A stretch of DNA of 64,000 nt from a virus (lineage: Duplodnaviria; Caudoviricetes). The stretch covers positions 192,001 through 256,000 of the IMG/VR virus record IMGVR_UViG_3300031134_000001; one strand, given 5' to 3'. The notes beneath the pieces were generated by a model. That model was not told the origin of the DNA and made no database searches. It saw nothing but the letters and a program-made list of their open reading frames with translations. Positions 17,008 through 25,169 of this stretch are shown here, piece by piece; positions within the stretch are counted from its first letter, which is position 1, and every line of letters starts with the position of its first letter. A program made the position numbers and the translations under genes.

Positions 17008-17946
17008 ATGAATGAAGCTGCTATCCTTTCCGACCGCCAGATCCGTGAACTGTGCGAGAAACCTGTCGGCACCCTGCGTTACACCGATTCCCGCCATGGT
17101 CCGGTTACTGAAGAACGTCGGGTACAAGTCTACGCTGATCAACTCGTTAACGGGTATCGCCAACACTTTGATGCTTACGCGGAAAAGCACGGCGGTAAAC
17201 AGATCCACGGTACACGCATTACGCTGCATGACGTTCACAGCGACGTCTATCAAGAGCACTATCGCGACTTCCAACCAATGATCGAACCGTTTTCTCCGCA
17301 CCAAGTTCGCGAGAACGAGCGCAACGCTACGGACGAAGAAGTGTATGTGATTCAACGCATGCTCAATGAAGAAGGTGTCGGCAATAAAGTTGACATCATC
17401 GCGGAACTGCAAAAGAAATGGCCTAGCATCCGGTCATTCCGGCTAGACATCATGCTGGGCTACCAGATCCTGGAAAAGATCGTCAGCTACGGTTTGACCT
17501 CGTTCGGTTACGATGTGCGCTGCGGTCGTGAATTCAAGATCTTCACCAACATCAATTCCACGCTGATCGATCCGAAGAACTTCGACGACAAGAACTTCGT
17601 GGACTTCGTCGGCGACGTTTGCATTATCCCGCCCAATTCGTTCGTGCTGGCCCGGACCATGGAACGCTTTGATCTGCCCCGCGACATCGTCGCTGACTGC
17701 GTGGGTAAGTCCACTTACGCCCGGTGCGGCATCTCCATCATGGTCACGCCACTCGAACCTGAGTGGGACGGCTACCTGACGCTGGAGTTCGCCAACACGA
17801 CCCCGCTGCCAGCCAAGCTGTATGCTGGTGAAGGTTGTGGTCAGATCCGCTTCTTCCGCGGCAGCGAAGGCTGCGAGACGTCGTACCGTGACCGTGGTGG
17901 CAAGTACCTCGGTCAAACCGATCAACCTGTCACACCGAAGATGTAA
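17008..17946 (+). CDS. dcd: dCTP deaminase with two N-terminal insertions
   Basis: [55 protein letters not shown] motifs. Confidence 0.93.
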
Positions 17947-20621: not shown

Positions 20622-21857
20622 ATGCAGTTCTATATCGTCGGCGGCTATGTCCGCGATAAGGTTTTGGGCAGAATACCTAAAGACCGTGATCTCGTGGTCG
20701 TGGGAGCTACCGAGGCTGATATGCTGGAGTTTGGCTGTCGGCCGGTTGGTAAAGACTTTCCTAGCTTCATCGGTCCAGATGGCGATGAAATTTCCATGGC
20801 GCGCCGTTCCCGTAATGGCGGGGTCGCTGACTTCGGTCCTGAAGTTACCCTCGAAGAAGATCTGGGTAAGCGAGATCTGACCATCAACGCCATGGCCATG
20901 GGCGAAGCCTACGAGGGTGATGCGTCGCTGATCGATCCGTATTTCGGCCACGACGACCTGCTTAACAAAGTGCTGCGTATGGTCAGCGAAGAAGCGTTTC
21001 GTGAAGACCCTATCCGAGTGCTGCGTGTTGCGCGGTTCGCTGCCCGCCTTCCGGACTTCCGGATCGACACCGACACCATGCATGTCATGAAGTCGCTCGT
21101 GATGGAAGGCAAACTCGACAACCTCGTGCCGGAACGGGTGTGGAAAGAACTGCACCGCGGCCTGATGGAAACCCAGCCCTCCAGGATGCTCAAGACGCTG
21201 CGTTTTTGCGGTGCACTCAAAGCCATCCTGCCGGAAGTCGATGCGCTCTACGGGGTCCCACAACCTGCCCAATGGCATCCTGAAGTGGATACGGGCATTC
21301 ATATCGAACAAGTGCTCGACTACGCGGCCAGCCAAGACTTTGCGCTGCCGGTGCGTGTGGCTGCGTTGCTGCATGACGTCGGTAAAGCATTAACACCGGC
21401 TGACACGTGGCCTGCTCACCATGGTCATGAAGGACTGGGCGAGCGCACTGCGCTGGCTGTGTGTGAGCGTCTGCGCGTGCCGGACTCTATCGCCCGTGTG
21501 GTGGCAATGACGACCCGTGAGCACGGTAACGTGCATGCAGCACTGAAGCTGCGGCCTGTGTCTGTGACGCGGTTGCTGCGTAAGTGCGACGCATTCCGTA
21601 ATCCCGATCGTTTTCAATACATGCTGCAAGCCTGCATGTGCGACGCACGTGGTCGTAAGTCCGACACCGTGAGCTTTGAAAACGTTGAGTATCCACAAGC
21701 CATGCGCTTGAGCGGTGCTCTGTGGGCAGCCCGGCAAGTCAAAGGCCATGACATCGCTGCCAAGTTCAAAGATCGTCCTGAAGAGATCGCAGTTCACATC
21801 CACGCTGAACGCGCCCGCGCTATCCGTCGCTTCGAAAAACAACACCCCGTCAATTAA
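20622..21857 (+). CDS. cca: class II tRNA nucleotidyltransferase with HD domain (Cca-like; possibly CC-adding)
   Basis: GGYVRD..LG...KDRD, EEDLGKRDLTINA, EDPIRVLRVARF, HPEVDTG, LLHDVGK motifs. Confidence 0.93.
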   Translation: MQFYIVGGYVRDKVLGRIPKDRDLVVVGATEADMLEFGCRPVGKDFPSFIGPDGDEISMARRSRNGGVADFGPEVTLEEDLGKRDLTINAMAMGEAYEGDASLIDPYFGHDDLLNKVLRMVSEEAFREDPIRVLRVARFAARLPDFRIDTDTMHVMKSLVMEGKLDNLVPERVWKELHRGLMETQPSRMLKTLRFCGALKAILPEVDALYGVPQPAQWHPEVDTGIHIEQVLDYAASQDFALPVRVAALLHDVGKALTPADTWPAHHGHEGLGERTALAVCERLRVPDSIARVVAMTTREHGNVHAALKLRPVSVTRLLRKCDAFRNPDRFQYMLQACMCDARGRKSDTVSFENVEYPQAMRLSGALWAARQVKGHDIAAKFKDRPEEIAVHIHAERARAIRRFEKQHPVN

Positions 21858-21867
21858 GGAGTAATAC

Positions 21868-23037
21868 ATGGGCGGCAACGCACTGATGTTTGCGCACACT
21901 GAGCGCAAGAACAAAGAGCAGTACACTGAAATCACCCGCACCGTGATCGACAAGTTGTGCGAACTGTTCCCGGCAACCGAGATGGCAGCGATCAAATCGA
22001 TCGAAGGTAAAGAGACCTTTGGCGACTGCGACATTTTGTTGGTCGATAAGAACCTGCCGGCAAACTGGATCTACCAAGTCCAGCAAGCATTCCATACCAA
22101 GGAAATGCTGATCAACCGACTGGGTGGTGGACCGCTTCGCTTCATTGACCCTAACATCGCGTTGGAGGTGGAGCACGTCGCCCTGCACGACGGTAGCCAC
22201 TACGATGTGCCGCAGTCAGCTATCCCGTCTTCGACAGTGTCGTTTGCGTTCGAGGATTTCCAGATCGATCTGATGATCACCCAACCAGAAGACTTCGAGA
22301 TCGCCCAAATCTACTACGCTTACAACGACCTCGGTAACCTCATGGGGCGCATCGCTGATGCCATGGGGTTCAAGTTCGGCTGGAGCGGCCTGTGGAAGAA
22401 CCTCGATGAAGGTAGCGAGACATACGCGAAGTTGTGCGTCTCGCGCGACCCTCGCCCCATCTTCGAGTTGTTGGGATACGATTACGATCGCTATTTGGTC
22501 GGATTCGAATCGTTCGAGAACATGTACGAATACGCTGCTTCGTCGCAGTGGTTTCACAGTGCGCTTTACCAGTTTGAAAACCGCAATCACAAAGACCGCG
22601 TGCGTGATGAGAAGCGCGCATCGTACCGCGGTTTCGTGGCGTGGCTGGAAGGCAAACCATGGCTGAACAAACACACATGGACCCGGTACGAGCTGGGCAC
22701 CAATCCACCGGCTCGGGTGCGGGAAAAGGAGGCACATCTGCGCCGGGCTTTGAGCCGGCATACGAGTTTCCGCCTGAGTGTCGATATCGAAAAGCGGCGG
22801 TACGTGGCAGTCAAAGGCGCCAAGAAGATCTGGAACGGTGAGATCATTTCCAAACTCACTGGGTTTACGGGTATGGAGTTGGGCGACTTCATGCGTCACT
22901 GCAAAGAAACGACGTATTGGGAAGGGGAGTTTGTTTCGTTTGAAGAACTTCTGTACGTACGTCGTCATGCGATCAATGTCCCTGCCATGGTTCGTGACCG
23001 CCTGCAGCATTTCAAACGGAAAGTCGATGACGCGTAA
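21868..23037 (+). CDS. Pol-beta superfamily nucleotidyltransferase-like protein
   Basis: KETFGDCDILL (G-D-x-D) and FQIDLMI (third Asp) motifs. Confidence 0.65.
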   Translation: MGGNALMFAHTERKNKEQYTEITRTVIDKLCELFPATEMAAIKSIEGKETFGDCDILLVDKNLPANWIYQVQQAFHTKEMLINRLGGGPLRFIDPNIALEVEHVALHDGSHYDVPQSAIPSSTVSFAFEDFQIDLMITQPEDFEIAQIYYAYNDLGNLMGRIADAMGFKFGWSGLWKNLDEGSETYAKLCVSRDPRPIFELLGYDYDRYLVGFESFENMYEYAASSQWFHSALYQFENRNHKDRVRDEKRASYRGFVAWLEGKPWLNKHTWTRYELGTNPPARVREKEAHLRRALSRHTSFRLSVDIEKRRYVAVKGAKKIWNGEIISKLTGFTGMELGDFMRHCKETTYWEGEFVSFEELLYVRRHAINVPAMVRDRLQHFKRKVDDA

Positions 23038-23395
23038 GATGGTGCATCTTGCAATTACCCGGCAGCTAAGTCGCTGGTCGATTGACTACATGCAGCCGTA
23101 TCAGTTGCTAACGCATTACTTGATGGCGTCGTACGCGTATTACATTCTAGCGGAAAGCGTATGGGTGGATGACGACTACGACTTTTTGTGTAGTCGGTTA
23201 TTAGAAGAGTTTGATAACTTCGAACACCGGCACAAACACTTAACTGGCGTCGATGCGTTGGGAGCCGGTACCGCATACCACCTAAAGTCGGAAGATTATC
23301 CACCTCAAATCCGTCATGGCTTTCCGACGTACATACGCAACATGAATGACGGCACCATCGAAAGCGACCTCTTAAAACAAGGTCGTTATAAATAA
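23027..23395 (+). CDS. stand-alone NAD-dependent DNA ligase domain-Ia-like protein
   Basis: YAYY......VDDDYDFL resembles LigA Ia YY.......D..YD.L; the start overlaps the NTase stop. Confidence 0.5.
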   Translation: MTRKMVHLAITRQLSRWSIDYMQPYQLLTHYLMASYAYYILAESVWVDDDYDFLCSRLLEEFDNFEHRHKHLTGVDALGAGTAYHLKSEDYPPQIRHGFPTYIRNMNDGTIESDLLKQGRYK

Positions 23396-23489: not shown

Positions 23490-25169
23490 ATGTCCGAAGT
23501 CATGTCCCTCGAAGCGGCGCGCGCGCCGTACGACCCAAACCTGTTCCACCGCATCGCCCAGCGTGCACAGAACAACTACAGCGCTCACGTCGCTACCAAC
23601 AAACCGATGTTCCGCGTCGAGCTGCCTAAAGGCGCGTTGTTCACGACCTACCTCGACAACCTGCCGATCGAATACCGCCAGCAGATGAACTGCTCGTGCT
23701 GCCGCAGCTTCCTGAACCGCATGGGTAACCTGGTCACGATCTCGACCGACGAAGCCAGCTTCGGCAAACTGGAATCGGTGTTCTGGCGCGAACGGGACAT
23801 CCCAGAAGAATGGAGCGTTGATCCAGTCTTCAACGACACCATGCAAGCCATGCGTGACCTGGTCGAATCGTCGACCATCGGTTACCATTTCCTGTCCTCG
23901 CTCGAAACTCTGGGCATTCCGGAAAAGGGCGGTTTCGAGCACTTCGCTGTCAAAAACGAACAAGTGTTCGAGAACAAGCTGTTTGAAGCCCACGAAGTCG
24001 TCGCCACCGAATACCAGTCCTTCGGCGCCCTGTCCAAGTTCATCGGCGTGACGGTCAAGCAAGAACTCATCGACCAGATCCTGGTTTACTTCAAGCACGA
24101 CAAGCGCTTGAAGGACATGGACAAATGGATCGGCCATCTCGAATGGCTGGCGCAGTTCAAGACGAAGCTCACGGCGCTGCCGCAGAAACAACGTCGGGCT
24201 TACACGTGGCTGCAAGTGGCCACCCAAAGCCCTGGTCGCGTGGACCTCAAGAACAGCCCGCTGGGCAAGTTCATGAAGAACATCATCAACGGCGTGGAGT
24301 ACGAAGCGGCTACCCGCATGTTCCTGTCGATGATCGGCGAGAAGTACATGAAAGCGACCGTGGCACCGAAGGAAGGCAACATCAAGCGCGCCGAGACCGT
24401 CGTTGAAAAGCTGGGTCTGGCATCGGCAATGAACCGCCGGCCGCTGATGCATTCGGAAGTGCGCGGCAAGATCTGGACGCCGCCAGTTGCCGAAGCAAAA
24501 GAAGCAGAGCACAAACCAGTGTTCGGTCATCTCAAGCCACGGGAAGAAAAGAAACCACCTGCGCCTGCTCTGCCGGAAATCACCTACGGCTCGATCACGC
24601 TCAAGCGCTTCTTGGAAGAAGTGTTGCCGGAAGCCGTCGAGATCTACTTCGACTACAGCCACAACTACTACGGTCAACACTACCCGATCGTCGGCTTTAA
24701 CACCAGCGTGGATGCTGATGCGAAGCCAATCCTGACGTGGGATAAGGAAGACAACCGCAACCCAGTGTCGGGCTACCTCTACCATGGGGGCAGCACGGCA
24801 TCACACTGGGCGCTGCCTCGTGATGGCAAGGTGCGCGTGACGGCCATCACGGTCGGTGTGCCGGACTGGAGCAAAGAAGTGTCGCTCGCTGACATGGCCG
24901 ATACGAGTTCGGTGATCTTCATCCTCGAATCGGGCCGCGATACCCGCGTCACTGACACGCCGATGTTTGCCGAGTCGTTCCTGCCAGAACTGCACGGTGT
25001 GCGTTCGGTGCTCGACGCGCATTTCCGCAGCCAACCCATGGCAGCGCTGCCAGAAGGTGAAAATCCAGTGGTCGGCATTACCGCTACTACCAAAGGCGAG
25101 GCGCTGGTCACGCTCAAGGTCGTCAAGAAAGACGCGGTCGTTCGCTACGTGATCGATCGTTCGCACTAA
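23490..25169 (+). CDS. large hypothetical phage protein (559 aa) with CxCC motif
   Basis: AAGGA RBS; NCSCCRSFL; strong codon bias. Confidence 0.85.
   Translation: MSEVMSLEAARAPYDPNLFHRIAQRAQNNYSAHVATNKPMFRVELPKGALFTTYLDNLPIEYRQQMNCSCCRSFLNRMGNLVTISTDEASFGKLESVFWRERDIPEEWSVDPVFNDTMQAMRDLVESSTIGYHFLSSLETLGIPEKGGFEHFAVKNEQVFENKLFEAHEVVATEYQSFGALSKFIGVTVKQELIDQILVYFKHDKRLKDMDKWIGHLEWLAQFKTKLTALPQKQRRAYTWLQVATQSPGRVDLKNSPLGKFMKNIINGVEYEAATRMFLSMIGEKYMKATVAPKEGNIKRAETVVEKLGLASAMNRRPLMHSEVRGKIWTPPVAEAKEAEHKPVFGHLKPREEKKPPAPALPEITYGSITLKRFLEEVLPEAVEIYFDYSHNYYGQHYPIVGFNTSVDADAKPILTWDKEDNRNPVSGYLYHGGSTASHWALPRDGKVRVTAITVGVPDWSKEVSLADMADTSSVIFILESGRDTRVTDTPMFAESFLPELHGVRSVLDAHFRSQPMAALPEGENPVVGITATTKGEALVTLKVVKKDAVVRYVIDRSH

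Follow-up and report, generated by a model that had tools for sequence, protein, structure and literature searches.

The separation of CC-adding from A-adding activity at the 3′ end of transfer RNA (tRNA) is known in early-branching bacteria and in a few eukaryotes, and to our knowledge each such split arose from a small change in the flexible loop of the enzyme. Here we analyzed a 64,000-nucleotide stretch of viral DNA (hereafter the window), corresponding to bases 192001-256000 of the complete IMG/VR virus record IMGVR_UViG_3300031134_000001 (271,026 bp, with direct terminal repeats). It carries a cca-like gene whose product, P0001, has a flexible loop that is shortened throughout a clade of phage enzymes; P0001 may have lost efficient addition of the terminal adenosine, A76. 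CC-adders were reportedly found by Neuenfeldt et al. in 2008 in Aquifex aeolicus, Bacillus halodurans, Deinococcus, Thermus, and Synechocystis. The natural bacterial CC-adders belong to other, early-branching lineages and are not known to have an HD domain.

The closest experimental precedent is the E. coli Cca enzyme. Within its loop, R65-F74, the G70A and Y71A substitutions, replacement by ten glycines (Gly10), and deletion of residues 65-74 all stop A76 addition while sparing C-addition, the kcat for A-addition going down 7.5-fold in Y71A, 400-fold in Gly10, and 1200-fold in the deletion mutant (PMC2532741, PMC2910056). Flexible loops are family-specific and have no universal residue; within one family, it is the conserved positions that are essential (PMC2910056). 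The hallmarks of CC-adders are a loop deletion together with loss of the basic/acidic (B/A) motif, and restoring both gives CCA activity (PMC7014341, PMC7947759). CC-adders also often have QRD for RRD and a variable first template residue, whereas A- and CCA-adders keep EDxxR or DDxxR (PMC7947759, PMC11784652). Another signature, ERxxxExxxhh, is found in CC- and CCA-adding enzymes, and its counterpart sRxxxExxxhh in A-adding enzymes and poly(A) polymerases (PMC2910056). A 2026 preprint that sorted bacterial enzymes by such criteria found only canonical CCA enzymes in its later-diverging cluster (10.64898/2026.05.29.728689), which we take to include Proteobacteria. Among the papers searched, none describes a phage CC-adding enzyme.

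P0001 is a phage-encoded class II tRNA nucleotidyltransferase with an HD domain and belongs with the multifunctional Cca enzymes of Proteobacteria. Against NCBIfam NF008137 (multifunctional CCA addition/repair protein; curated equivalog cut-off 451) it obtains 464.8 bits, aligned over residues 1-407 of 411, and it matches the Pfam families PF01743 (PolyA_pol head), PF12627 (PolyA_pol_RNAbd), and PF01966 (HD), as well as phrog_2244, annotated as 'tRNA nucleotidyltransferase'. An AAGGA ribosome-binding site lies 8 nucleotides 5′ of the open reading frame. The AlphaFold model (mean predicted local distance difference test score, pLDDT, 91.7) can be superposed on every solved class II enzyme at Z 21-27. 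This fold search with the whole model is non-discriminating, as it returned Bst CCA at Z 26.8, the Aquifex CC-adder at 26.3, a poly(A) polymerase at 24.6, and the Aquifex A-adder at 23.3. The virus record comes from a phyllosphere metagenome, partial relatives occur in straw and food-production metagenomes, and no RNA sequencing run containing the cca locus was found. The gene and the elements discussed below are as follows, in window coordinates.

20622-21857, + strand: cca-like gene encoding P0001, 411 residues, with a class II tRNA nucleotidyltransferase head and neck and an HD phosphohydrolase domain.
20640-20690, + strand: motif A, G7-G8-Y-V-R11-D12...D21-R-D23, containing the catalytic carboxylates; invariant across 70 and 121 aligned homologues.
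20802-20810, + strand: position of the B/A motif, R61-R62-S63 (R-T-E in bacteria), from the alignment.
20805-20846, + strand: shortened segment R62-V75 (RSRNGGVADFGPEV, 14 residues), 6 residues shorter than in bacterial relatives in the alignments.
20868-20876, + strand: motif B, K83-R84-D85 (KRD for RRD), from the alignment.
21003-21017, + strand: motif D, the amino-acid template, E128-D129-P-I-R132 (EDxxR), from the alignment.
21132-21164, + strand: ERVWKELHRGL (E171...), an ERxxxExxxhh signature read from the sequence by the rule of PMC2910056.
21372-21377, + strand: H251-D252 of the HD phosphohydrolase domain (Pfam HD, 30.4 bits), both invariant.

Between the B/A motif and motif B, P0001 is 6 residues shorter than all 97 of its 97 nearest bacterial homologues. 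These read ARTERKTAPGY[H/K]GFVFHTSPDVTLE, of the general form ARTERKTAPGY[H/K]GF....P[D/E]V-TLE, in which the G, Y, G, and F are invariant; the loop itself, RKTAPGY[HK]GF, is nearly invariant among them. The Salmonella Cca, 44% identical to P0001, reproduces the published E. coli loop numbering R65-F74. Relative to its own family, P0001 is missing 6 of about 10 loop residues, as against the 10 removed in the E. coli deletion mutant. The gap can be placed in three ways: with MAFFT it falls after N65 and with BLAST after G72, and a third register, set by hand, pairs GVADF with GYTGF. None of the three keeps a Gly-Tyr or Gly-His pair, and equivalents of E. coli G70 and Y71 are absent. In the AlphaFold model, this region (block pLDDT ~72) forms a strand at residues 61-65, a two-residue turn at G66-G67, and a second strand at 68-71, with the motif B helix starting at 77 (77-81). 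Among the short-loop proteins, residue 65 is hypervariable and positions 66-67 are small turn-formers; no new conserved side chain replaces the Tyr lever. The HMMER alignment of P0001 with the Aquifex CC-adder AaS (3wfo) began only at motif B.

Assemblies from JGI, ENA, Logan, and NCBI yielded 23 proteins with the same deletion, and it is also found at three IMG/VR viral loci (L003, L004, and L005); together these define the short-loop clade. Because these proteins were independently assembled and share the same architecture, the deletion is not a sequencing or assembly artefact. Motif C (D105...G109..D112) and the HD residues H219, H251, D252, H266, and H269 are invariant in the clade, and the E, D, and R of the template are invariant in 24/24 short-loop and 97/97 long-loop sequences. 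The B/A glutamate, present in 97/97 bacterial relatives, is Ser in 16 of 23 clade members, P0001 included, and Glu in the other 7. The first residue of motif B is Lys in 23/23 clade members and Arg in 97/97 bacterial relatives, with RRD in 80/80 bacterial genome loci; R83K (RRD to KRD) is a conservative change.

These results agree for the most part with an earlier note on this DNA, made from the letters alone. It had placed a 14-residue stretch at nucleotides 20805-20846, exactly where R62-V75 sits, within the open reading frame and with the translation that it gave. It had also described a loop shorter than that of proteobacterial Cca, which the 97 homologues bear out, and the loss of both the acid of the RxE motif (the equivalent of E64 is Ser) and the Y-x-G-F element. 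Its reading of DRD, the EDxxR template, and the HD domain as intact is likewise confirmed, and its premise that loop deletion or B/A loss yields CC-adders matches the literature (PMC2532741, PMC2910056, PMC7014341, PMC7947759). Its statement that the 'RD' of motif B is intact is correct for R84-D85 but passes over the first residue, K83.

A separate observation concerns residues 91-104 of P0001 (window positions ~20890-20935), where most short-loop members carry a variable stretch of 3-10 extra residues between motif B and motif C. It reads MGEAYEGDAS in P0001 against RAEDG in bacteria and is missing in P0016, P0018, P0019, P0021, and P0022.

In the phylogenetic tree, the short-loop proteins are monophyletic (99/94 support) and sister to the Cca of Oxalobacteraceae (Massilia/Duganella; 100/99). 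The nearest bacterial relatives are the Massilia, Duganella, and Pseudoduganella enzymes, with 53-56% identity over the full length. The clade itself has diverged to about 50% identity. The long contigs bearing a short-loop cca measure 163-322 kb, three of them being IMG/VR viral records, and the gene order around a 95%-identical cca copy matches that of the window. We also ran a pattern search over 185,579 bacterial and archaeal species, each represented by one genome, and kept the 80 best bacterial matches; these are at most 51% identical to P0001, and 80/80 have the long spacing (22 residues) and RRD. Ten more distant viral Cca (L006-L015, 34-40% identity) all have a long loop, with the B/A acid in 10/10 and Tyr or His before the conserved Phe in 9/10. 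With the long loop in both bacteria and distant viral Cca, the deletion and R83K are thus features of the whole clade and, so far as seen, of phages only. The Ser state is scattered over the tree, so E63S came after the deletion, once or several times; Glu is still found in the deepest branch, L005, and in six further members.

The same association of traits was examined across the HD-type family, using 150 representatives drawn from 1.84 billion clustered proteins, 142 of which were scored for segment length. The G[YH]x[G/D..]F element occurs in 101/139 diverse representatives, and the segment is short in 17 of the 142, leaving 125 with a long loop. Short-loop and long-loop representatives differ in loss of the B/A acid (13/17 vs 8/125), of the first Arg of motif B (6/17 vs 7/125), and of the first template acid (5/17 vs 4/125), counts that are not phylogenetically independent. 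These patterns show the 'CC-adder syndrome' of the literature recurring inside the HD-type family. Of the four traits, the phage clade shows three, a short loop, S63, and KRD, but not the fourth, a template change.

Other short-loop lineages came to light in this survey. P0263, P0273, P0283, P0297, P0258, P0310, and P0247/P0392 have still shorter loops (12-13-residue spacing) and no B/A acid; some of this set have an HRD or LRD motif B, and templates of the types ADxxR, TDxxR, QDxxR, NDxxR, and VDxxR occur. They are candidate further CC-adders in the HD-type family. P0247/P0392 was also considered as a deep member of the phage clade, having a 16-residue spacing and a VDxxR template; because it did not group with the clade in a quick, weakly resolved tree, we treated it as a separate lineage. 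Two short-loop representatives stand out by origin: P0251 comes from an alphaproteobacterial metagenome-assembled genome, and P0265 lies on a 695-kb contig.

Taken with the E. coli mutants, the remodelled loop suggests that P0001 is a CC-adding or strongly A-impaired enzyme, which would rebuild ...CC efficiently and A76 poorly or not at all. We give this prediction about an even chance. We propose that P0001 would be an active phage tRNA 3′-end repair enzyme, combining a nucleotidyltransferase head with an HD phosphohydrolase. An ancestor of a group of ~160-320-kb phages would have taken cca from a betaproteobacterial, Oxalobacteraceae-like source, and a six-residue deletion in that ancestor would then have turned the flexible 'lever' loop, responsible for changing the specificity of the pocket from CTP to ATP, into a tight Gly-Gly hairpin. 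The elements for C74 and C75 addition and for removal of 3′-phosphates and cyclic phosphates would have stayed under strong purifying selection, while the A76-specific determinants (the loop Gly-Tyr, the B/A glutamate, and the first Arg of RRD) were presumably removed or remodelled. Since the A76 determinants appear to be gone and the C-addition elements kept, CC would be rebuilt efficiently and A76 would not, and the terminal A would be supplied by the host's own full Cca.

The strongest competitor, which we regard as a real possibility though not the favored one, is that P0001 is a full CCA-adding enzyme with a compact, re-optimized loop and compensating changes (T62R, R83K, and often E63S), making it an unremarkable phage version of the CCA repair enzyme. 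Several observations fit it and weigh against a CC-only activity. Template residue E128 is invariant in 24/24 clade members, as are motif C and ERxxxExxxhh, although natural CC-adders vary at the first template position and A- and CCA-adders keep E or D there (PMC11784652). The 16-residue stretch between the B/A motif and motif B in P0001 is only 2 residues below the 18 of the A-competent Aquifex A-adding enzyme (by alignment), and likewise only 2 below the 18 of the human enzyme (PMC2910056). As loops are family-specific and have no universal residue, a compact loop could be re-optimized. The clade changes look selected rather than decayed, K83 being invariant and position 63 only S or E, and T62R and R83K may be compensatory; substitutions specific to the clade have become fixed and are not drifting. 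The B/A Glu persists in seven clade members, including the deepest branch, the gene is retained across phages diverged to ~50% identity, and P0001 scores above the curated cut-off of the CCA equivalog. On the other side, the E. coli enzyme has the same loop family, in which single changes at G70 or Y71 or even a same-length Gly10 loop abolish A-addition; the residual turn of P0001 has no conserved side chain that could assume the lever role; and a B/A Glu found in 97/97 bacterial relatives is lost in 16/23 members. The earlier note's prediction of a CC-adding enzyme thus gains from the short loop and from the loss of the B/A acid and the Gly-Tyr pair, and loses from the kept E128 template and a spacing close to that of A-competent enzymes; it stands as a prediction from sequence.

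The tRNA genes of the phage bear on the same choice, one of them in particular.

248-323, + strand: phage tRNA-His(GTG), from ARAGORN and the sequence; it encodes G-1 and C73-C74-C75, followed by T.

As T follows C75 in this gene, A76 has to be a post-transcriptional addition. A full CCA is encoded by each of the other six phage tRNA genes, and since nearly all tRNA genes of the phage and of two complete relatives do so, P0001 is therefore best seen as a repair enzyme. The usual lesion of a tRNA end is loss of A76. Repair needs A, this being the commonest lesion and A76 all that tRNA-His needs, which again favors full CCA addition over CC-only activity. In the same direction, the complete phage genomes (G000, G001, and G002) have no second class II enzyme, with one PF01743 gene each, and no PF01909 (NTP_transf_2) gene was found in G000. 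A second class II enzyme as the A-adder was accordingly set aside for the phage and its two complete relatives. With neither kind of protein in the phage, only the host Cca could finish CCA if P0001 does not. Genes for RtcB and for an Rnl2-type RNA ligase were not found in G000 either, and no wider tRNA-repair kit was detected there. In the 322-kb relative G002, ARAGORN calls three tRNA genes without an encoded CCA (Ile-AAT at 234757-234846, Leu-TAA at 246909-246991, and Ser-TGA at 255564-255652) and six with it; the three could be weak calls.

The loss of A-specific elements is the one point in favor of a decoy, in which P0001 would be catalytically dead or would sequester tRNA-CC and so disturb host tRNA repair. 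We find this extremely improbable. A clade diverged to ~50% identity has kept all catalytic carboxylates, the template, motif C, and the HD metal ligands unchanged, which points to selection for catalysis, and the product is no dead end, tRNA-CC being the normal substrate of the host Cca. For this last reason the suggestion of the earlier note that the enzyme could poison host tRNA repair has no basis.

A stronger form of the CC-adder proposal holds that the clade is a naturally evolved viral CC-adder within the proteobacterial Cca lineage, possibly the first with an HD domain, and that the remodelling (the deletion with T62R, R83K, and E63S) is adaptive and not decay. This we think unlikely. 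On this view, the phage would deliberately rebuild ends only as far as ...CC and leave the ATP-dependent last step to the host, perhaps in response to a host defense or nuclease by which the entire CCA is taken off. The altered pocket may instead take a different terminal substrate.

The earlier note had further suggested the gene downstream of cca as a partner for A-addition. This gene and the next one are the following.

21868-23037, + strand: P0122, 389 residues, with a Pol X-like palm and thumb and a helical C-terminal domain (phrog_24943; AlphaFold pLDDT 93.8).
23039-23395, + strand: solo nicotinamide adenine dinucleotide (NAD)-ligase Ia-like domain (Nlig-Ia), 118 residues (Pfam PF22745, 30.8 bits against a cut-off of 27).

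In such a two-enzyme phage pathway, Cca would add CC and the adjacent P0122 the terminal A. In its favor, cca and P0122 share a strand with 10 nucleotides between them; cca is likewise followed by a P0122 homologue in L003, L004, L005, and the P0002 phage; and the P0122 active-site carboxylates (G52-D53-x-D55 and D134, a GDxD...D pattern) are intact and invariant. However, a P0122 homologue also stands 3′ of a long-loop Cca in L007, and the P0122 family, which comprises at least 379 proteins (379 matches), has members that lack an accompanying Cca, in a Janthinobacterium chromosome (L016) and a 287-kb phage. P0122 has no Pfam match. Its fold matches (VIA) are to Thermus Pol X, Pol beta/lambda, TdT, and African swine fever virus Pol X at Z 10-11, and its structural neighbors include PolX-NAD-ligase fusions of nucleocytoplasmic large DNA viruses. 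A Pol X palm and thumb, such neighbors, and an adjacent Nlig-Ia, which starts 1 nucleotide past the P0122 stop, point to DNA repair, and P0122 has no tRNA-binding body or tail like those of class I and II enzymes. On its fold, its spread without Cca, and its NAD-ligase neighbors, we rejected P0122 as a likely A-adder, and the two-enzyme pathway appears very improbable. P0122 is probably a neighbor, not a functional partner, of cca. With Nlig-Ia it looks like a DNA-repair or NAD-linked module instead of an A-adding partner, and the pair may form an NAD- or nucleotide-linked DNA repair module; solo NAD-ligase Ia phage proteins are an already described class (PMC9503650). In the Janthinobacterium chromosome, the P0122 homologue lies 10 nucleotides after a CTP_transf_like (cytidylyltransferase-like) gene.

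Two further genes flank this region. At 17008-17946 (+ strand), ~2.7 kb upstream of cca, the C-terminal domain of a 312-residue protein resembles dCTP deaminase (PF22769, E 2e-32), and the gene is in the same place in the 95%-identical relative. At 23490-25169 (+ strand), a 559-residue protein has a match to phrog_1735, of unknown function; PF26675 (DUF8224), listed for it in the relative's precomputed table, did not come up in our Pfam scan.

A phage-restricted clade that repeats the loop change in an HD-containing proteobacterial Cca would show the same evolutionary step being replayed independently and in a way that can be dated, and as the unmodified bacterial sister enzymes are only ~55% identical, loop-graft experiments would be simple. 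With CC-only activity, virus and host would divide tRNA-end repair between them, a hint that some host nucleases cut away the complete CCA end. If P0001 instead adds the full CCA, the Gly-Tyr lever that is essential in E. coli would be replaceable by a two-residue turn, which bears on the mechanism of the CTP-to-ATP switch.

Compared with proteobacterial Cca (E. coli/Salmonella, NF008137, PRK10885), P0001 has the same head-neck-HD architecture, and motifs A, C, D, and E and the HD ligands are common to both, with full-length identities of 44% to Salmonella and 53-56% to Oxalobacteraceae. It differs in being phage-encoded, in its 6-residue loop deletion without G70/Y71 equivalents, and in RRS for RTE and KRD for RRD. 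Close in kind are the engineered E. coli loop mutants, which share the enzyme and the loop family and in which the same residues were altered that the phage deletion removes or replaces. Here, however, the deletion spans 6 and not 10 residues, is accompanied by fixed T62R, R83K, and E63S, and has long been under selection, the CC-only activity being a prediction.

With natural CC-adders, including Aquifex AaS (PDB 3wfo-3wfs), P0001 shares the class II fold (VIA Z 26.3 to 3wfo), a loop shortened relative to its own family, a lost B/A acid, a non-canonical first residue of RRD, and ERxxxExxxhh, the loops being compared by description. Natural CC-adders always share their genome with a dedicated A-adder, whereas for P0001 the only possible A-adder is the host Cca, and they vary at the first template position, where EDxxR is invariant in the P0001 clade. 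Finally, Cca homologues occur in 433 phage records, and a jumbo-phage survey covers phage Cca (PMC7824862). Other phage Cca (phrog_2244; Sinorhizobium phages phiM12 and phiN3 and Vibrio, Erwinia, Aeromonas, and Acinetobacter phages) are, like P0001, phage-encoded Cca-HD proteins with a presumed role in tRNA 3′-end repair, but the ten examined (L006-L015) are of the long-loop type, and the short-loop KRD type is confined to the P0001 clade.

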